Shown: one piece after another, positions 1 through 7,362 of the stretch
Position numbering within the stretch: the first letter of the stretch is position 1
Layout of the letters: every line of letters starts with the position of its first letter
Assembly (NCBI GenBank): GCA_023261815.1
Contig: JALNKA010000012.1
Coordinates: 1 to 31,238 of the forward strand
Direction of reading: 5' to 3'
Source of the DNA: Candidatus Wolframiiraptor sinensis
Lineage (GTDB): Archaea > Thermoproteota > Nitrososphaeria_A > Caldarchaeales > Wolframiiraptoraceae
Length of the DNA: 31,238 nucleotides
Position numbers and translations under genes: made by a program
The notes under the pieces: generated by a model
Database searches by the model: none
What the model saw: the letters and a program-made list of their open reading frames with translations, nothing else
Told to the model about the DNA's origin: nothing

Positions 1-2
1 TC

Positions 3-167
3 ACGGACACAAAGAAAACAGCTCACGCGCCCACACCCCCATACGCTATAATAGTCAAGCCGAGACGGAATCTGGAGATAAAGTATCCATGCGAGGTCAG
101 GATGGAGGATGGAGCGATAATAGTGATAGACAGGGAGAGGGCTGAGAAAGTGGCTGAGGAGAGGTGA
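3..167 (+). CDS. 3' end of a hypothetical protein running in from the window edge
   Basis: Open frame from base 3 (TDTKKTAHAP...DRERAEKVAEER) to TGA at 165-167, with purine-rich coding-like codon use. No family recognised. Confidence 0.45.
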   Translation, partial: TDTKKTAHAPTPPYAIIVKPRRNLEIKYPCEVRMEDGAIIVIDRERAEKVAEER

Positions 168-440
168 TGCTGAGCGATCTAATACTACTGCTGGTAGAGG
201 CGCCAGAACGATCTGGCGGTCTGCGAGGAGTCATAGGCGAGCGAATCATCGCGAGCGCACGATAATAGGCGAGGGGAGATTTGCGAGAAGATCAAGCACC
301 TCATTATAAGGCTTCAGAAAATAAAATATCCGTACGGATGGAAAGAAGAGATCCGGAAAATAGCGTCCCGAGAAGGGCTTAGAAGCAGGGAATGAGGATC
401 TAAAGTTAGCATTTTAAACGGGCCTGACATTCCTATAAAC

Positions 441-522
441 GCCCCACCGCTGCGTTTGGCTCCTCGGAGAAGGGCGCCGAGCCCCGGCCATGATGGGGAG
501 TTGTCGGCGGTGGGGCACAATC
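441..522 (+). ncRNA. Candidate single-hairpin H/ACA box guide sRNA
   Basis: Basal stem GCCCCACCGC 441-450 pairs with GCGGTGGGGC 507-516 and is followed directly by ACA (517-519). Upper stem GGCTCCTC pairs with GGGGAGTT, ending 14 nt before the ACA. K-turn-like GGA-GA.../UGA. TATA-like TTTTAAA at 412-418. Confidence 0.6.
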
Positions 523-524
523 GC

Positions 525-1343
525 CTAGCCCGCGAGCAGGATTATCGCCATCATGATCAGCACGGAGGAGAACATTTTTCTCAAGGCCGGTGAGCTAGTT
601 CTCCGGGCGGCAGATGTGCCGAGCTGAGCTCCAGCAATTATTCCGGGCGCGAGCGCGAGTAATTCGATCAGCTTGACGTGGCCTAGGAGGATGTGGCCTA
701 TAGCCCCTGATAGTGCAGTGAGCGTTATCATGAGCGTAGAAGTCGCGATTGCCACGTGCATAGGCACGCCGATATGATACATCAACGGGACATTCACGCC
801 GCCGCCTCCCACACCGAAGAAGCCTGAAATTACTCCGGCAAGGAAGCTCGCCGGAAGAAGCTTCAACAAATCAACCGAGTACGCAAAAACCTCACCGCGC
901 GAATCTCTAAGAACCCTCTTCCAACAAGTTTCCCCATGATCTCTCTTGAAGACTTCTTCATCGGCCGGCGAGCTTCTTCTGAAGATGATTGAGAGCGCTA
1001 AGGCGATGAGGAAGATCGAGAATAGAATCCTAAGCGAGCTAGGCGCGGCGAGCCCCGTCAGAGTCGCTCCAAGAAATGATCCGGGCATCGCTGTGGTCTC
1101 GGCGACCAGCGCGAGCCTCCAATCGAGCCTGCCCTGCCGGTGATAGGCGAGGGCTGATGCGGCTCCTGCGAAGACTATGGCGGCCATGCTGGTTCCAATT
1201 GCGTGGTGGGCATCGAACCCGGCTAAGATCATGAGAGCGGGAACGGTGATGATGCCGCCGCCTAGGCCGAGCATGGCGCCGAGAGATCCCGCAAACAGTC
1301 CTAGGAGGATGATCATGGGCAGGTGGATGAGCGGCTCGAGCAA
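525..1343 (-). CDS. TauE/SafE (TSUP) family sulfite exporter membrane protein
   Basis: Two repeats of the GxGGG motif (GLGGGIITVP, GVGGGGVNVP), AIGTS/AIATS motifs and about 8 TM helices. Confidence 0.88.
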   Translation of the reverse strand: MLEPLIHLPMIILLGLFAGSLGAMLGLGGGIITVPALMILAGFDAHHAIGTSMAAIVFAGAASALAYHRQGRLDWRLALVAETTAMPGSFLGATLTGLAAPSSLRILFSIFLIALALSIIFRRSSPADEEVFKRDHGETCWKRVLRDSRGEVFAYSVDLLKLLPASFLAGVISGFFGVGGGGVNVPLMYHIGVPMHVAIATSTLMITLTALSGAIGHILLGHVKLIELLALAPGIIAGAQLGTSAARRTSSPALRKMFSSVLIMMAIILLAG

Positions 1344-1376
1344 CGCGCTTAATCCGGTTAGAGCGGCTCTAAAGGC

Positions 1377-2242
1377 TTATCGCGTAATCTCTTGGGACCT
1401 GACGATCTCATACAGCTCTCTCGCCCGCTTATCCTTCTCGAAGTGCTCTCTAACGGGCTCTATGAGCTGATTCAGCGCCTCCGCGACGCCTTCCTTCAGG
1501 TCCGCCGGGTGAAGCCTGCCCTCGACATAATCCCTCTCGAGCTCCTCGTATGAGGAATATTCGACCGGGCCTCCATACTTGCTGGGCCTATCGATGCGAA
1601 GGCTCCCGAGCTTCCTGAAGATTATGTACTTGGCGTACTCCAGTATGGGGTTGTTCTCCGAGGTCTTCGGAGGGCAGTAAGCTCTCTTAATCTTCTCTCT
1701 TATCGTGTTCTCGTCGTCGTGGATGAAGATGCTGGTTTCCGGTATACTCTTGCTCATCTTAGAGGCTATCTGGAGATTCATCCTCGGGTCGTCCTCGAAT
1801 CCCTTGAGCTCCGATGGCCCTTGAAGCCCCATCAGCATGTGATGGTGGACGGCGACGGGCTTCCTGAATCCCAGCTTGGGAGCCAGCTCCCTCGCGAGAA
1901 TATTCGCCCTCCTCTGATCGAGGCCCAGCTGGCATATATCGATGCCCATGTAGAATATGTCTGAGACCTGCATCGCGGGGTAGATTATCTGGGCCGCCTC
2001 CTCGAGCTCCCCGGCAACCCTCCCCATTATCGGGAGAGCCCTCAATATCCGCCTTATCGTGACGCTTTTAGCCACTTTTATCACGAGCTTCCAGTAATCT
2101 GGATCCGCCGCCAAGTCGCCGCCCAGACAACCTCAACCCTGCTCAAATCGACTCCAGCAGCTTTCCAGACCTCGAGAAGATACTCCCCAACCTTTCTTAT
2201 CTTCTCCAGATCCCCTCCCATCTTATTGTTTATCATTGCGTG
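1377..2242 (-). pseudogene. tyrS: 3' part of the resident tyrosyl-tRNA synthetase gene (5'-truncated, frameshift at ~2119)
   Basis: 2242-2120 translates HAMINNKMGGDLEKIRKVGEYLLEVWKAAGVDLSRVEVVWA. One base is missing before DLAADPDYW. The frame then contains YPAMQVSDI, GLDQR, KMSKS, AYCP, RPSKYGG and LHPADLK. The HIGH-motif region is absent. Confidence 0.88.
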
Positions 2243-2252
2243 TCACCGGTTG

Positions 2253-2264
2253 TATTTATAAATA
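2253..2264. promoter_or_regulatory. Palindromic TATA box, potentially bidirectional
   Basis: TATTTATAAATA is a perfect 12-bp palindrome, about 30 nt upstream of the tyrS ATG at 2293 (+) and about 20-35 nt upstream of in-frame ATGs at 2236 and 2221 (-). Confidence 0.6.
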
Positions 2265-2292
2265 AGGGAGAGAAGTTGAGGTAAGGGGAAAT

Positions 2293-3252
2293 ATGGAGGC
2301 CTTAAATGAGGAAAATGCGAGATTGCTATCATTACTCAAGAAAACTTCGGTTGAAATATTAACCGAGGAGGAATTGATCTCACTTATTAAAAGTGGAAAT
2401 ATAACGGCGTATATCGGATACGAGCCAAGCAATGTCCTTCACATAGGATCCTTGGTGGCATGCTCACCATTACTACTTTTGGCTAAACATGGATTCAGGG
2501 GCAAGATTCTCCTCGCCGATGTTCATGCTTGGCTGAATGGCAAAGGGGAGTTAGAAGAATTAAGAGAGCTGGCAGTAGAGAATGAGCGCATATTAAGGAG
2601 GGTGATCAACGCGTTCGGAGTTCCCGCTTCCCGTATCGAGTTCGTATATGGATCTGATTACCAGTTTTCCGAGGATTATGTGAAGTCTTTACTCAAGTTA
2701 TCTCGCCTTATAACGGCGAGTAAAGCTAGAAAAGCTATGGATATGATAAGTAGGAGGGAAATGGCGCATAAAATCTCTTCTGAAATTTACAGCTTAATGC
2801 AATGCTTGGATATAATGTTTCTGGGAGTGAATGTTGCTATAGGCGGCAGAGATCAAAGAAGAATTCATGTGCTGGCGAGAGAGTATTTGACCAGGCTGGA
2901 CTATATTAAGCCAGTAGCAATTCATACTCCAATTATTCTCGGCATTGATGGTAAAGAGAAGATGTCAAAAAGCCTTAATAACGCCATCTTCTTAAATGAT
3001 CCACCCGAGCAAATAGAGTACAAGGTGAGAATGGCATATTGTCCTGAAGGAGCTCTGGAGGCAAACATGGTATTCGACATCTTACAGTACCTGATACTCG
3101 TGTGGATGGGGAAGATCGAAATAAATGGAGTCCCATTTGATGATGCCTCGACAATTTTTAGGTATTGGGTCGATAAAAGGATAAGCGCGAAAGAGCTAAA
3201 GAAATCTGTATCCGAGGCATTAATACAACTCCTTAAGAAAATTCAAGGATAG
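2293..3252 (+). CDS. tyrS: Tyrosyl-tRNA synthetase, short archaeal type, probably xenologous
   Basis: Motifs AYIGYEPS, HIGS (HIGH), LLADVHAWLN, YSLMQCLDI, GGRDQRRIH, KMSKS and AYCP. Collinear by eye with M. jannaschii-type TyrRS. Confidence 0.92.
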   Translation: MEALNEENARLLSLLKKTSVEILTEEELISLIKSGNITAYIGYEPSNVLHIGSLVACSPLLLLAKHGFRGKILLADVHAWLNGKGELEELRELAVENERILRRVINAFGVPASRIEFVYGSDYQFSEDYVKSLLKLSRLITASKARKAMDMISRREMAHKISSEIYSLMQCLDIMFLGVNVAIGGRDQRRIHVLAREYLTRLDYIKPVAIHTPIILGIDGKEKMSKSLNNAIFLNDPPEQIEYKVRMAYCPEGALEANMVFDILQYLILVWMGKIEINGVPFDDASTIFRYWVDKRISAKELKKSVSEALIQLLKKIQG

Positions 3253-3287
3253 AGGAAAAAGAGAGTAGAGGAAAGGGGGTTTATTCA

Positions 3288-4230
3288 TTAACAGATCTTC
3301 TTAAACTTGCTGGCAGCTATCAGCATATGAAGCTGCTCCTGCTCTCGCCTTATTCTGAATCCTACAAGCTTGCTGAATCTAATGATACAGCAACGGCGTA
3401 TTCTAACGGTATACGTCTTACCTGACTTTGGCTTGTATATTTTCCCGGTCTGTGGACTTATGAACTCTTTTGCGTTCTTGAATCCTCCGATTGTGTAGTG
3501 GATGCCTAAGAGGTCGAGTAGATAAGCCATTAGTCTCACGATGTCTTGATTTGCGGAAGCCCCTCTGGGAGCATCGTATTTATAACTATTTAGATTGAAG
3601 CTTCCTGGAGACCCCTCGGCATCAAACCATCCTGTTAGGGCGCCTCTCGCAATTTCCTTGTTGATAGTTAAGACCGGCAATAGCCTGAGTGGTTGCACCT
3701 TTCCCACCTTGATTAACTCCGTGACCACAACGTTACTATATGCCACTTGCCATCCTCTTTTTCCTCCACTTCCATGCCGGTATACCCAATCTTTCTGCGC
3801 TCTTAACTATCGCGTCCGCAAAATCTTCATCTTTCAGCCAGGCATATTGTGTTGATCTCCCCTTAGGATCTGCTGATCCGTCGCCGATTCCGGAACCGAG
3901 TAGATAGCCGAGGTCATAGGTGGGCGGCGGGATCTTGTAACTCGTAAATGGCGATGTGCCTTTCTTGAACCAGAAGTAGATCGTTGACTTTTCTATACCA
4001 AGAAACCTCGCTATCTCGAATATTCCAAGCTCCTCATTTAATAGTCTCATGAATTTGCGATACAATACTGCCTGTCGGTAAATCGATCTATAATGACGAA
4101 GCCGTTTAGGATCACCGTATTTAGAAGTAATAACTTCTTCTACAGCATCAGCAATGCTCAATAAATCATCTTCGTCAAGCTCCCTAAATAGCTCTGGCTC
4201 CTCAATTATGAGAACATCTTTTCTTGTCAC
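3288..4230 (-). pseudogene. Free-standing double-motif LAGLIDADG homing endonuclease with N-terminal HTH, split by a frameshift at ~3760
   Basis: ORF 3736-4260 has an HTH (IFEIARFLGIEKSTIYFW) and motif 1 LGYLLGSGIGDGS. ORF 3288-3746 has motif 2 ALTGWFDAEGS. Removing one A from an A5 run fuses them (WRKRGWQVAYSN). GTG at 4230 is preceded by GGAGGTGG. No intein splicing motifs. Confidence 0.8.
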
Positions 4231-4289
4231 TATCCTTCCACCTCCAGCTCCTAGAACCACCAGCTGACCCCCTTATCCATCAGCTGATA

Positions 4290-4343
4290 GACCTCCTCGG
4301 TCGGCGGCCGCAATATGAGCTCCATCCTCGTCTCCACGTCCAT
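4290..4343 (-). pseudogene. tyrS: 5' fragment (first 18 codons) of the resident tyrS
   Basis: MDVETRMELILRPPTEEV is a typical N-terminus of crenarchaeal/Thermococcales-type TyrRS. Similarity stops at 4290 and the frame stops at 4251. Confidence 0.8.
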
Positions 4344-4674
4344 TTTAGCCCCCAGTAACCTGGCTGAAAGCCTAGAGAAAAACATGCTCTTCGGGGAGCT
4401 CGCTGGGCGGGTGGCCCGTCTCCGGCCCCCGAGGGCCATCATGGCCAAAAAGCCGGGCGCTCCCGAGAAAAAGAACTTCTCGACCATTTTTCGACGAGAA
4501 CAGCGTGCTCCAAGCCATTATCCGGTTTTCTCATCTAGGAGCATTTCTTCATGCTGGAGATCTTTAATCCGCGCTCACCAGTTTTTCTCAAGCGTTGATA
4601 GGCTTGTCCTAGGCGCTACCTCAACCCTTAAATCACTCGTGTGCGGTGGGATCGTAATTGGGGAGTATAGAAAA

Positions 4675-7362
4675 TTGAAGGATAACTCGAGAAAATTAGA
4701 GTTCCCGGTTAAGAAGGTCATCAAACGAGATGGCAGAGTAGTCGACTTCGATCCCACGAGGATACGCGAGGCAATTAGGAAGGCGATGGTTCACGTCAAC
4801 CGCTACGATGAGGAGAGCTTGAACAAGGTCGTCGAATATGTCCTGAATATAATATCGGAGAAGTATGGAGCGGAGAGGACGCCGCACGTGGAGGAGATTC
4901 AGGATATAGTCGAGCTGAGCCTCGTGAAGTTCGACCTCTATGAGGTCGCGAAGGCCTACATCATCTACCGGAAGGAGAGGGAGAGGATCAGGGAGGAGAA
5001 GAAGAGGATCCTCGAGAAAGATTACGTCGATGAAGTCGATAAGGCTTTCAGTCTCAACGCGCTCCGCCTCATGGCCAGCAGATACCTTCTGAGGGATGAG
5101 AACGGCAAGCTTAGGGAGACCCCCAAACAGATGTTCCAGAGAGTCGCGGCCCTAATAGTCATCCCCGACATCCTTCACGATCCCCGAATCTTCGATAAGG
5201 ACTTCGGGCAGAAGGAACATCCGCGCGAGGAGTTCAACCCGATCGAGTATGAGGGGAGGCTCGGCCTAGGCAGGAGGCCCGATGGATCATTCGAGATAAC
5301 ATGGAATAGATGGCACCTCGAGCGGATGAAATATCTCTATGATGAGCTGAATCGAGAGCGGGCGATGAGGATTTCTTGGAGCGAGTTCCTGCGAATGCTC
5401 GAGGCGGGCGAGTTCGACGGCTACTACAAGAACTTCCTCCAATATTATCAGCTGATGGTGAGCAAGAGGTTCATGCCGAATAGCCCGACGCTCTTCAACG
5501 CCGGCACGAGGCTGGGCCAGCTCAGCGCATGCTTCGTCCTCCACATAGACGATAACCTCGAATCCATAATGGATGCGGCTAAGCACGCGGCCCTAATATT
5601 CAAGTCGGGTGGTGGAGTGGGGATAAACTACTCCAGGCTCAGGCCCGAGGGCGACATCGTCTTCTCGACGTTCGGCGTGGCCTCGGGCCCCGTCTCATTC
5701 ATGAGAATAATAGACACGGTTACGGAGGTGGTTAAGCAGGGAGGCAAGAGACGCGGAGCTAACATGGGGATTCTCGAGATATGGCACCCGGATATCGAGA
5801 CCTTCATAAAGGCTAAGGAAAGGGAGGGCTTTCTCGAGAACTTCAACATATCCGTGCTGATCACGCCTGACTTCTGGGAATACTATGAGCAGGGCAAGCC
5901 CTATCCACTGAGAAACCCGAGAGATGGTAAAGTCTGGAGGACAATAGATCCCGCGAGACTCCTCAGAACTATCGCGGAGATGGCTTGGAAAACCGGCGAC
6001 CCTGGCGTCCTATTCCAAGACAACATGAACAATCATAACATATTCTTGGAGAAGCTCGGGCCGATAAGATCGACGAACCCGTGCGGCGAGCAGCCCCTCT
6101 ACCCCTTCGAATCCTGCAACCTCGGAAGCATAAACGTGCACGCCTTCGTCAGGAATGGCGAGTCTGGCCCATACCTGGACTGGGAGGGCCTCGCGGAGAC
6201 CGTCAAGCTCGCCGTCAGATTCCTGGATAACGTCATCGACGTGAACAAGTATCCGCTGAAGCAGATAGAGTATAGGACGAAGAGATCTAGGAGGATAGGC
6301 CTCGGGGTCATGGGCGTCGCCGACGCACTATTCGCCCTGAAGATACCATATAACAGCGAAGAGGGCTTCCGTTTCATGAGCAGGCTCGCGGAATTCATAG
6401 CGTATCACGCTTATCTTGCGAGCGTGGAGCTGGCCAAGGAGCGCGGCCCATTCCCAACCTACTGGGACTCGGCATATCCGAGGGGAGAACTCCCGATCGA
6501 GGGATTCTATCACCCGGAGGAGTGGACGCTAAACTGGAATAAGCTCGTTGAGGAGATAAAGAAGCACGGGATCAGGAATAGCCACGTGACAACAGTCGCC
6601 CCCACCGGAAGCATCTCCATGCTCGTCGACGTCTCATCTGGGCTGGAGCCCCAATTCGCCCTAGTATACGAGAAACGAGTGACTGTTGGAACATTCTATT
6701 ACGTTGACATAGAATTCGAGAGGCAGTTGAAGGAGCGCGGGCTGCTGAATGACGCGATATTGAAGAAGGTCGCCGAGAATGGTGGATCGGTTCAGGGCCT
6801 GGATGAGATACCCGAGGACATGAGGCGAGTCTTCCTCGTCGCCTACGACATACCATGGTGGGATCACGTGAGAGCTCAATACGAGTTCCAGAAGTGGGTG
6901 GATGCCTCAGTCAGCAAGACGATAAACATGCCTGCATGGATCACGGTCGATGACGTATTGAAGGCATACCTCTTCGCGTACAAGCTCGGGCTAAAGGGCG
7001 TAACAATCTACAGGGATACGTCGAAGTCGGCGCAGGTTCTCGTCACACCATCGCAGAGGCTATCGAGGTATATTTCCCTAACTCCCAACAAGACTCTCGA
7101 GATCATGAAATCCCTCGGGATCGAGCCTCCCATAATCGGTGTCCAAGAAACCGAGGATGTCGAGCGGAAGAAGAGGATACTCCAAGTGACGTATGCGGGC
7201 GGAGAGCACGTGGAGGTGGAGGCCGAGAAGACGGGCGGCGGAAAACAAATTAAGAAAGAGCCCTATGAGAGGTGTCCGGAGTGCGGCAGCCTGAACCTCA
7301 TCTATCAAGAGGGCTGCGTCAGGTGCATGGACTGTGGATGGACCAGCTGCCTAGTCACCTAG
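4675..7362 (+). CDS. nrdJ: Class II (adenosylcobalamin-dependent) ribonucleotide reductase with ATP-cone and C-terminal Zn ribbon
   Basis: ATP cone VIKRDG; motifs PNSPTLFNAG, LSACFV, NPCGEQPL, CNLGSIN and APTGSIS; C-terminal CPECG...C. Start moved to TTG 4675 (GGGGAG upstream, TATA-like CTTAAAT at ~4627). No intein. Confidence 0.93.
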   Translation: MKDNSRKLEFPVKKVIKRDGRVVDFDPTRIREAIRKAMVHVNRYDEESLNKVVEYVLNIISEKYGAERTPHVEEIQDIVELSLVKFDLYEVAKAYIIYRKERERIREEKKRILEKDYVDEVDKAFSLNALRLMASRYLLRDENGKLRETPKQMFQRVAALIVIPDILHDPRIFDKDFGQKEHPREEFNPIEYEGRLGLGRRPDGSFEITWNRWHLERMKYLYDELNRERAMRISWSEFLRMLEAGEFDGYYKNFLQYYQLMVSKRFMPNSPTLFNAGTRLGQLSACFVLHIDDNLESIMDAAKHAALIFKSGGGVGINYSRLRPEGDIVFSTFGVASGPVSFMRIIDTVTEVVKQGGKRRGANMGILEIWHPDIETFIKAKEREGFLENFNISVLITPDFWEYYEQGKPYPLRNPRDGKVWRTIDPARLLRTIAEMAWKTGDPGVLFQDNMNNHNIFLEKLGPIRSTNPCGEQPLYPFESCNLGSINVHAFVRNGESGPYLDWEGLAETVKLAVRFLDNVIDVNKYPLKQIEYRTKRSRRIGLGVMGVADALFALKIPYNSEEGFRFMSRLAEFIAYHAYLASVELAKERGPFPTYWDSAYPRGELPIEGFYHPEEWTLNWNKLVEEIKKHGIRNSHVTTVAPTGSISMLVDVSSGLEPQFALVYEKRVTVGTFYYVDIEFERQLKERGLLNDAILKKVAENGGSVQGLDEIPEDMRRVFLVAYDIPWWDHVRAQYEFQKWVDASVSKTINMPAWITVDDVLKAYLFAYKLGLKGVTIYRDTSKSAQVLVTPSQRLSRYISLTPNKTLEIMKSLGIEPPIIGVQETEDVERKKRILQVTYAGGEHVEVEAEKTGGGKQIKKEPYERCPECGSLNLIYQEGCVRCMDCGWTSCLVT

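Follow-up and report, generated by a model that had tools for sequence, protein, structure and literature searches.

The resident gene for tyrosyl-tRNA synthetase (tyrS) of the archaeon Candidatus Wolframiiraptor sinensis is interrupted by a cassette of about 2 kb, which encodes a LAGLIDADG-type nuclease and a complete tyrosyl-tRNA synthetase (TyrRS) of a different type, and which probably is a homing element that disrupts its essential tyrS target and supplies a replacement TyrRS. The stretch analysed, hereafter the window, comprises 31,238 nucleotides (nt) and is the entire contig C16 of a 33-contig metagenome-assembled genome (G000; 1.18 Mb, 92.4% complete). The wider proposal, that the cassette is a natural and still active home-and-rescue gene drive in Archaea, jumping between genera and families of Caldarchaeales and lying behind the TyrRS replacement in genus g6, is somewhat favoured by the evidence. 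The observations that carry these readings are the anatomy of the locus, a common insertion site, a presence/absence polymorphism within species, correlated decay, co-divergence of nuclease and TyrRS, and purifying selection on the TyrRS.

Anatomy of the interrupted tyrS locus

The cassette and the pieces of the resident gene are laid out in the window as follows, with host residues numbered after the intact 363-aa tyrS orthologue of relative G007.

1377–2114, minus strand: C-terminal piece of the resident tyrS, 245 codons, a pseudogene piece (NF006330)
2081–2242, minus strand: middle piece of the resident tyrS, from H76 (HAMINNKMGG...; sequence and alignment to G007)
2243–2292, plus strand: cassette end adjoining the TyrRS gene (sequence and junction position)
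2293–3252, plus strand: cassette TyrRS, complete, 319 aa (NF006330; Pfam tRNA-synt_1b)
3288–3746, minus strand: second LAGLIDADG domain of the nuclease, with motif FDAEG (PF14528; aligns with intact homologues)
3736–4260, minus strand: N-terminal helix-turn-helix (HTH) and first LAGLIDADG domain of the nuclease, with motif GIGDG (Pfam LAGLIDADG_3)
4251–4289, minus strand: stub of a leader open reading frame (ORF), its last 13 codons and stop (alignment with a 53-aa homologue on G000:C13 and L071)
4290–4343, minus strand: codons 1–18 of the resident tyrS, including the start (alignment to G007)

The block between the tyrS remnants (2243–4289; 2,047 nt) has a GC content of 0.39–0.50, compared with 0.53–0.63 in the flanks. 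The C-terminal remnant matches the NCBIfam TyrRS model NF006330 with 292.6 bits (cut-off 220) and is 90% identical to the intact tyrS of G007 and G002; a frameshift near 2119 puts the middle piece out of frame with it. Residues 19–75 (57 codons) are gone from the remnant, and with them the part of the gene around the class I signature motif; by comparison with G007, the codon of W75 is TGA. The promoter region of the resident gene lies between 4343 and the divergent gene nrdJ.

The cassette gene scores 304.6 bits with NF006330 (cut-off 220), against 71.4 bits with the best TrpRS model (cut-off 176.75), its Pfam tRNA-synt_1b match covers positions 4–292 of 292 and KMSKS is present, which on these curated models makes it a predicted archaeal-type tyrosine--tRNA ligase. 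It is only 33–40% identical to the resident TyrRS. An A/T palindrome, TATTTATAAA, at 2253–2262, 31–40 nt before its ATG, may be an archaeal TATA box. The whole genome contains four matches to PF00579, and since those other than the cassette gene are the two remnant pieces and a TrpRS gene on C8 (TIGR00233, 263.9 bits; cut-off 176.75), the cassette TyrRS is the sole intact tyrS found; this census of the 92.4%-complete genome recovered no second one.

Two neighbouring genes define the undisturbed form of the locus.

525–1343, minus strand: TauE/SafE-family membrane protein gene (TauE), downstream neighbour of the resident tyrS (Pfam PF01925, 186.9 bits)
4693–7362 (start about 4693), plus strand: class II ribonucleotide reductase (nrdJ), divergent from tyrS (Pfam ATP-cone, Ribonuc_red_lgN, Ribonuc_red_lgC)

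The nrdJ gene is the neighbour of tyrS at every locus compared, and TauE also adjoins the intact tyrS of G007 and G002. Relatives of the same genus and family carry an intact 363-aa tyrS flanked by nrdJ and TauE, and in relatives of the genus this gene is 80–90% identical to the window remnant.

Much of this anatomy had been anticipated from the letters of the window and its ORFs. The original prediction described an AT-richer block of about 2 kb holding a complete, different TyrRS on the opposite strand, which matches the 2,047-nt block, and it placed the split resident gene correctly, with codons 1–18 at 4343–4290 and a 3' part from HAMINN at 2242. It also expected relatives to keep an intact tyrS between nrdJ and TauE, as those examined do, and no other intact tyrS in this genome, where none was found. 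Its loss of about 55 codons was real, but the count is 57.

A free-standing LAGLIDADG nuclease

A +1 frameshift within five consecutive A (3758–3762) divides the nuclease of the window into two halves, and Pfam LAGLIDADG_3 matches it with 23.7–45.8 bits (cut-off 22.5); the Pfam matches and the two-frame layout confirm the earlier description of a free-standing HTH-LAGLIDADG gene with a frameshift. Its intact homologues have 299–315 aa, with an N-terminal HTH and two LAGLIDADG-type domains. The first motif, GIGDG, is present in the window and in all five close homologues that cover it (L071, G070, L062, G066 and L072), and the second, FDAEG, in the window and four of five close homologues, L072 having FDSDG; a distant copy in G021 has VIGDG and FDSEG.

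A sequence search of the nuclease against solved structures gave no significant match (best E 0.028), so a fold search was needed. The AlphaFold model used for it (pLDDT 87.8, pTM 0.86) was of the intact L071 homologue, which is 61% identical in the second half, and not of the broken gene in the window. Its top Foldseek matches were I-DmoI (TM 0.60–0.63 by target), PI-SceI, I-Tsp061I and PI-PfuI, with E values of 2.5e-6 to 1e-4. Motifs and predicted fold thus point to a monomeric two-domain LAGLIDADG homing endonuclease. The cassette nuclease is like I-DmoI, I-Tsp061I, PI-PfuI and PI-SceI in having the same predicted fold and both acidic motifs, but differs from the intron- and intein-borne archaeal LAGLIDADG enzymes in lying out of the tyrS frame, in having no Hint domain and in its extra N-terminal HTH.

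A self-splicing intron or intein was considered and rejected: positions 1–6000 of the window contain no Rfam family at E values up to 1, no Hint or intein Pfam domain was found, the nuclease frames are discontinuous with tyrS, and 57 host codons are missing from the window.

It is very unlikely that the cassette was moved by other machinery with a preference for this site, such as an integrating virus, a plasmid or a transposase, and that the LAGLIDADG protein does something else, such as regulation. The unit does include a leader ORF and the N-terminal HTH of the nuclease, and LAGLIDADG folds occur in non-nucleases such as WhiA (Foldseek ranks 48 and 50). Against this, GIGDG and FDAEG, motifs of the catalytic type, have been conserved, the fold search ranked active homing enzymes first, and neither cassette gene was recovered on the viral contigs scanned beyond two 30%-identical matches to the nuclease. 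No integrase or transposase was seen among the ORFs and Pfam matches of the 2-kb cassette, and no terminal repeats were noticed by eye at its junctions, no formal search for them having been made.

The family to which the cassette nuclease belongs also has members at other sites, because G066 carries an intact 299-aa copy (L054:6268-7167, plus strand) inside an amino-acid ABC-transporter operon with no tyrS nearby. The second half of this copy is 49% identical to that of the window.

One insertion site, two orientations

Searches with the second half of the nuclease as query found its close relatives in four of the 76 genomes of the order (G013, G055, G070 and G066). In 185,579 species genomes a scan confirmed 5 nuclease loci, 4 of them close and 3 of these 4 tied to tyrS, and a metagenome scan gave at least 9 confirmed loci, 8 of them close, with all 8 close matches listed tied to tyrS. 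The pair of nuclease and TyrRS genes, predicted to occur elsewhere, recurs inside resident-type tyrS at the same codons on at least 13 contigs including the window, in three cassette lineages and at least three genera; L069 and L070 may sample one organism repeatedly, as may G055, L076 and L075. A complete TyrRS gene adjoins the nuclease in the window and in 11 of 11 copies that reach that far (G013, G070, G055, L062, L069, L070, L071, L072, L073, L074 and L076), L075 ending inside the nuclease gene. Copies are termed inverted when the nuclease gene is on the host strand and the TyrRS gene opposite, and direct when the TyrRS gene is on the host strand.

Inverted, window (G000): host N part 1–18, C part from 76
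Inverted, L069/L070: same junction as the window
Inverted, L074: N part 1–32, C part from 74
Inverted, L071: N part 1 to about 69, C part missing
Inverted, L072, L073, L062 and G013: C part from 73–75
Direct, G070: N part up to 74, TyrRS gene in frame with the host N part
Direct, G055/L076: N part 1–73, C part from about 81–84
Direct, L075: host C part resumes near residue 81–84

The junction on the TyrRS side, wherever present, falls within a few bases of GAC|TGG (D74|W75; residues 73–76; LLLAD|WHAMINN). This holds for G000, L069/L070, G013, L062, L072, L073, L074, G070 and G055/L076; the junction is not seen in L071, where the host C part is gone, or in L075, which stops in the nuclease gene. 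Insertion at the same site in independent genomes, as read from these contigs, is what would be expected of a homing element. The junction on the nuclease side is ragged, with the N part of inverted copies ending at residue 18, 18, 32 or about 69. When host pieces kept on one side in some copies are compared with those kept on the other side in others, the two overlap at the D74 codon. LAGLIDADG enzymes make short staggered cuts, and this overlap would fit insertion inside such a cut.

The stretch encoding LLLADWHAMINNKMGG is conserved in ten intact resident alleles, except in G020 (I N K K for I N N K), and the DNA of the conserved stretch in these ten reads GCN GAY TGG CAY GCN ATG ATH AAY AAN AAR ATG GG. 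The homologous stretch of cassette-type genes reads ...GCN GAT GTN/ATA CAT GCA/T TGG CTN/TTA AAY GGN AAA GG and encodes LLADVHAWLNGKG. The two appear distinct enough for a protein reading about 20 bp to discriminate between them.

That the nuclease homes but targets a neighbour, either nrdJ or the intergenic region, with the TyrRS gene beside it by chance, is highly improbable. Synteny alone cannot separate the two targets, since nrdJ neighbours tyrS everywhere compared, and the nrdJ of one relative (G011) appears to have an intein with a nuclease-like insert. The junctions nevertheless lie inside tyrS at D74|W75 in both orientations, and not in nrdJ or the spacer, and nrdJ is intact beside every copy that reaches it.

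The left junction of the window and the leader ORF

The left junction of the window does not mark the insertion point. Host codon 18 runs directly into the last 13 codons of a leader ORF, an intact 53-aa homologue of which is found on contig C13 of the same genome (L081:1495-1656, minus strand). Versions of this ORF precede the nuclease gene in L071 (425-631), G055 (L055:~5500-5671) and L075 (1728-2042). It occurs in lineage-B cassettes, where it overlaps or closely abuts the nuclease start, and has the pattern ...FEFCR.Y.KWLG.P..RLK.E....L.E.V.WW.... Host and leader have GA(G/A)GTC in common at the crossover.

Because codon 18 is joined to a leader remnant, the 57-codon gap is a secondary deletion, in which host codons 19–75 were lost together with most of the leader after insertion at D74|W75. 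The earlier claim that the cassette sits in place of the missing codons is therefore not upheld. The leader stub at this junction also indicates a cassette that originally had three genes, for leader, nuclease and, convergent with the nuclease gene, TyrRS.

On G000:C13 the leader precedes a 177-aa ORF with a similar N-terminus (MVVPGAGGG...), and neither ORF matches any Pfam or NCBIfam family. The 36 nt at 4227–4262 of the window are common to short contigs of three metagenome runs (X1, X2 and X5) that continue into other sequence, loose ends which fit a leader region repeated elsewhere in the genome.

Both alleles in natural populations

Eight to nine hot-spring runs from 5 studies contain at least half of the sampled words of the 3.4-kb stretch. 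The contigs of four runs from four studies (X1, X2, X3 and X5) were compared with positions 800–5200 of the window, using depths that are per-contig figures of the Logan assemblies and not read counts. Both junctions, at 2243 and 4290, whose support by other data had been a point of the original prediction, are crossed by contigs from independent studies: X3 record 19 corresponds to 2054–4267, X5 record 22 to 2212–4319, and X2 records 11 and 12 to 2205–2463 and 2434–4343.

These contigs exclude an assembly chimera as the source of the window's arrangement. The idea that the junctions are artefacts of metagenome assembly or binning draws on the origin of the window in a 33-contig metagenome-assembled genome and on an 8-N gap with an exact 79-nt repeat in G013, but with contigs of X2, X3 and X5 from other studies crossing the junctions, and the same architecture on at least 12 further contigs of other assemblies, its probability is negligible.

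Cassette-bearing and cassette-free alleles occur together in X2 and X5, with flanks that are 98–99% identical. In X2, the flanks have a depth of about 200, the cassette 91–117 and a contig joining 2242 to 4290 a depth of 86. In X5, the flanks have about 242 and the cassette 12.8, and loose ends at 2239/2242 continue into intact ...RFKLLLADWH (reverse complement). Depths of cassette and flanks are about equal in X1 (6.4 and 7.2–7.7) and X3 (30.2 and 28.1). Genome G070 also has both forms, namely an intact tyrS on C2 and, on a contig of 2,083 nt, a cassette; the first 77 nt of this contig match that tyrS exactly. The cassette is thus polymorphic for presence and absence within species and the target is split in every carrier, as in homing elements.

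In X2 and X5 the A-run of the cassette at 3758 is one base shorter, and the host C part has one T more behind 2119, while X1 and X3 carry both frameshifts, like the window. With these two variants applied, the nuclease frame lengthens from 174 to 323 codons, and the open stretch of the host C part from 53 to 288 codons, running from H76 to the normal stop. Both frameshifts are therefore missing from the runs that also contain the cassette-free allele and found in those with an apparently fixed cassette, which agrees with the original reading of the frameshifts as decay after fixation. The state of the nuclease forms a series, from in frame (X2/X5) through one frameshift (window, X1 and X3) and multiply broken (L069/L070 and G055/L076) to absent (g6), pointing to the cycle of invasion, fixation and nuclease decay that would be expected of a homing element.

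The cassette allele of X2 and X5 has 13 extra letters at 2228/2229, an imperfect tandem copy of the first host codons past the junction. Repair may have left this duplication behind at the TyrRS-side junction.

Phylogeny, selection and spread

The TyrRS genes of the cassettes belong to a clade (SH-aLRT 96) that shares no more than 46% identity with its nearest relatives outside. Resident and cassette TyrRS fall in different clades, in line with the earlier idea of a divergent rescue copy. The clade includes three cassette lineages that are only 57–61% identical to one another: A (G070, G013 and L062), B (the window, P0001-P0012 and G055) and C1 (the P0020 group). The C1 gene is the TyrRS of L072-L074, and C1 is joined to the genes of genus g6 with modest support (84). 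The three lineages reappear in the tree of the nuclease halves, which argues that nuclease and TyrRS travelled together; the tyrS-free copy of G066 falls outside them.

These lineages conflict with host taxonomy. The window (B), G013 (A) and L074 (C1) lie in or next to one genus, G055 (lineage B) belongs to another family than the genus of the window, and the flanks of L074 are 93–97% identical to G007. This pattern supports horizontal spread of the cassette as a unit across genera and families.

The ratio of non-synonymous to synonymous substitution rates (dN/dS) of the cassette TyrRS was 0.107 (window and L069), 0.110, 0.156 and 0.107 in four pairs, consistent with purifying selection. For the nuclease it was 0.215 between G013 and the intact L062, 0.67 between L072 and L073, and 0.93 between the window and L069, in both of which the gene is broken. 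The nuclease gene of L069/L070 has fallen into several pieces, and their host C part has decayed and breaks off after about residue 188; their TyrRS is still 96% identical to that of the window. The host remnant gave a dN/dS of 0.042 against G007 (dS 1.2), a value rejected as a measure of decay, as it mostly reflects history before insertion.

An order-wide census covered the 69 of 76 genomes with a TyrRS match at E values up to 1e-20. The cassette type is present in 12 of them, namely four cassette carriers and all eight genomes of genus g6, three genomes (genus g7) have a third type, and the remaining 54 genomes of the census have the resident type only. All eight g6 genomes have the cassette-type gene alone, and the resident type is found in their sister genera within the family. 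At the g6 loci of G025 and G039 the cassette-type gene is divergent from nrdJ, the place of the resident type elsewhere, and neither nuclease gene nor host tyrS scar was detected at these two loci. Genus g6 therefore looks like a completed in-place replacement of TyrRS, with a direction suggested by synteny and phylogeny, these being the only grounds for it because no scars were found in the two loci.

An ordinary horizontal replacement of tyrS, in which the foreign TyrRS was perhaps advantageous (against a natural inhibitor or at a given temperature) and the LAGLIDADG gene was a mere passenger, would account for several of these observations. Cleavage by the nuclease is a prediction, ragged junctions and two orientations suit illegitimate recombination, the cassette TyrRS is under purifying selection and kept after nuclease decay, and genus g6 retains the TyrRS alone. 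It is nonetheless unlikely, since the insertions of three lineages, which differ so far that their TyrRS identity is 57–61%, coincide to within a few bases in tyrS, nuclease and TyrRS co-diverged as a pair, and the nuclease is under purifying selection where intact (dN/dS 0.215) and is in frame exactly in the runs that contain the cassette-free allele. A mere passenger should not behave in this way.

Genus g7 has a third type of TyrRS in all three genomes (G026, G029 and G032; loci L024-L026), 35–36% identical to the cassette type and 44–45% to the resident type, which may represent another replacement in the same order.

Proposed mechanism of home-and-rescue

The homing-element reading, which the original prediction had put forward and which the sequence evidence supports, predicts the following course. 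The nuclease would cut a cassette-free resident tyrS at or next to D74|W75 (LLLAD|WHAMINN), and repair of the break from a cassette-bearing copy would write the cassette into tyrS, destroying the resident gene and the target site together. The cell would survive because the cassette TyrRS, immune by its sequence at the homologous stretch (LLADVHAWLNGKG), takes over. In the inverted orientation the nuclease gene stands behind the resident tyrS promoter and the TyrRS gene has its own A/T-rich upstream region, and in the direct orientation the TyrRS gene follows the host N part. After fixation the nuclease would decay because no target is left, the host remnants would decay too and the foreign TyrRS would be kept, giving as end state the in-place replacement of an essential synthetase, as in genus g6.

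Several points weigh against this scheme. The cleavage specificity, the repair route, the passage of DNA between cells and the activity of the cassette TyrRS are deduced from sequence; the putative recognition site, the LLLADWHAMINN-coding stretch of intact resident tyrS, is placed by the junctions. The two orientations and the ragged nuclease-side junctions differ from the outcome of simple homing templated by homology and require at least some illegitimate joining or later rearrangement. Orientation tracks the host genus, all g1 copies (three lineages) being inverted and those of g5 and g14 (lineages A and B) direct, and so follows the host and not the cassette lineage. The nuclease-side junction of G013 falls in the 8-N gap, which is preceded by the exact 79-nt repeat of the junction region and looks like two alleles joined by the scaffolder. 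The nuclease of X2 and X5 is shown in frame at the break only, with 22 further differences unlisted, and allele shares are rough because the depths are per contig. The missing 7.6% of the genome could conceivably carry a second tyrS. Finally, scans of viral contigs returned only the two 30%-identical matches with the nuclease alignment and none with the cassette TyrRS.

Relation to known systems

Homing elements are generally thought to spare the host gene by splicing, as introns and inteins do. The original prediction likewise stated that homing nucleases normally spare essential targets through introns, inteins or co-conversion; to these routes the WHO elements, a natural class that restores by replacement, have to be added. 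These elements of Torulaspora and Lachancea yeasts combine a LAGLIDADG-motif endonuclease gene with an alternative 3' half of the essential gene FBA1, according to PMC7282813, and restoration by replacement is called 'a third category', unique to WHO elements, in a preprint of August 2026 (bioRxiv 10.64898/2026.08.13.744650).

As far as those texts describe WHO elements, the cassette resembles them in that a nuclease gene travels with a replacement of an essential host gene, by replacement and not splicing; that non-functional host-gene fragments and degenerate nuclease genes stay at the locus; and that the nuclease and the accompanying host-gene copy are both highly diverse. WHO elements are, by the same texts, eukaryotic, with an intein-derived nuclease that has a zinc finger, whereas the cassette is archaeal and its nuclease combines an HTH with two LAGLIDADG domains, Pfam showing neither a Hint domain nor a zinc finger. 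They swap only the allelic 3' half of FBA1 and form clusters downstream, whereas the cassette brings a whole xenologue, 33–40% identical, and inserts mid-gene in either orientation, leaving both resident halves as remnants. By this comparison the cassette appears to work like a WHO element but to stand outside that family.

Free-standing homing endonucleases of T-even phages reportedly include SegF and SegG, which act in intronless homing. MobE is another such enzyme (PMC2790892). The likeness is that a nuclease encoded independently of introns and inteins cleaves the allele that lacks it, and resistant neighbouring sequence is co-copied; in phages, however, the neighbour is an allelic copy in its normal place and no copy is destroyed, whereas the cassette adds a second full gene and breaks the resident one.

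Engineered drives share the same logic of a nuclease with a tightly linked uncleavable rescue gene, and HomeR is an engineered home-and-rescue gene drive. In Cleave-and-Rescue (ClvR), a nuclease disrupts an essential gene and a linked uncleavable version rescues carriers (PMC6442612). Such drives use Cas9 and guide RNAs in diploid sexual animals or plants, whereas the cassette is natural, would have its target read by a protein in a haploid archaeon, and would depend for its spread on DNA exchange between cells.

For the homeoalleles of aminoacyl-tRNA synthetases, we know of no description of a mechanism that is driven by a nuclease and leaves remnants in place. Homeoalleles, or xenologous displacement of these enzymes in prokaryotes, are treated in PMC3191353, and the present case is alike in having two deeply divergent synthetase forms scattered among close relatives and replacing each other at one locus. 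No paper on a cassette of nuclease and synthetase was found in the full-text literature, in a coverage that excludes most subscription journals.

The cassette would be the first prokaryotic homing element to 'restore by replacement', and the first with a complete xenologous gene. If the proposal is true, 'bring your own replacement' arose independently in archaea, replacement works with a whole and very divergent gene, amounting to a permanent swap of an essential translation enzyme, and the long-noted patchy xenologous displacement of aminoacyl-tRNA synthetases in prokaryotes gains a testable mechanism. The cassette would also let the population dynamics and the decay of cleave-and-rescue drives be studied in a natural system, and its spread could be followed directly, as public metagenomes contain populations at cassette frequencies of about 5%, about 57% and about 100%. 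The family further offers thermophilic LAGLIDADG enzymes with a defined candidate target.

Further LAGLIDADG genes and associated elements

Matches to a nuclease half at E values up to 1e-3 occur in 37 of the 76 genomes of the order. The genome of the window has further LAGLIDADG genes on C6 (L082:1624-2614, plus strand) and C28 (G000:C28:40112-40450); that on C6 is also split into two frames and has about 31 nt in common with the leader region of the cassette.

In the nrdJ of relative G011 (L030:3-3035, minus strand), about 380 aa are inserted between ...STNPC and ...CGEQPLYP; the insert ends in HN and looks like an intein with a nuclease domain. The nrdJ of the window is without this insert.

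A GC-rich element of about 130–180 nt lies upstream of HTH-LAGLIDADG genes (L062:1-181, L065:~1500-1680, and L066 and L067:~1500-1630, minus strand). It is present in the lineage-A copy L062 and in four places in two genomes of genus g5, two of them beside tRNA genes. Rfam matched only two tRNAs in six related loci, and not the element. Its consensus fold has 38 pairs, 9 of them with compensatory changes, and an energy of -60 kcal/mol, suggesting that it may be a structured leader or a mobile-element RNA.

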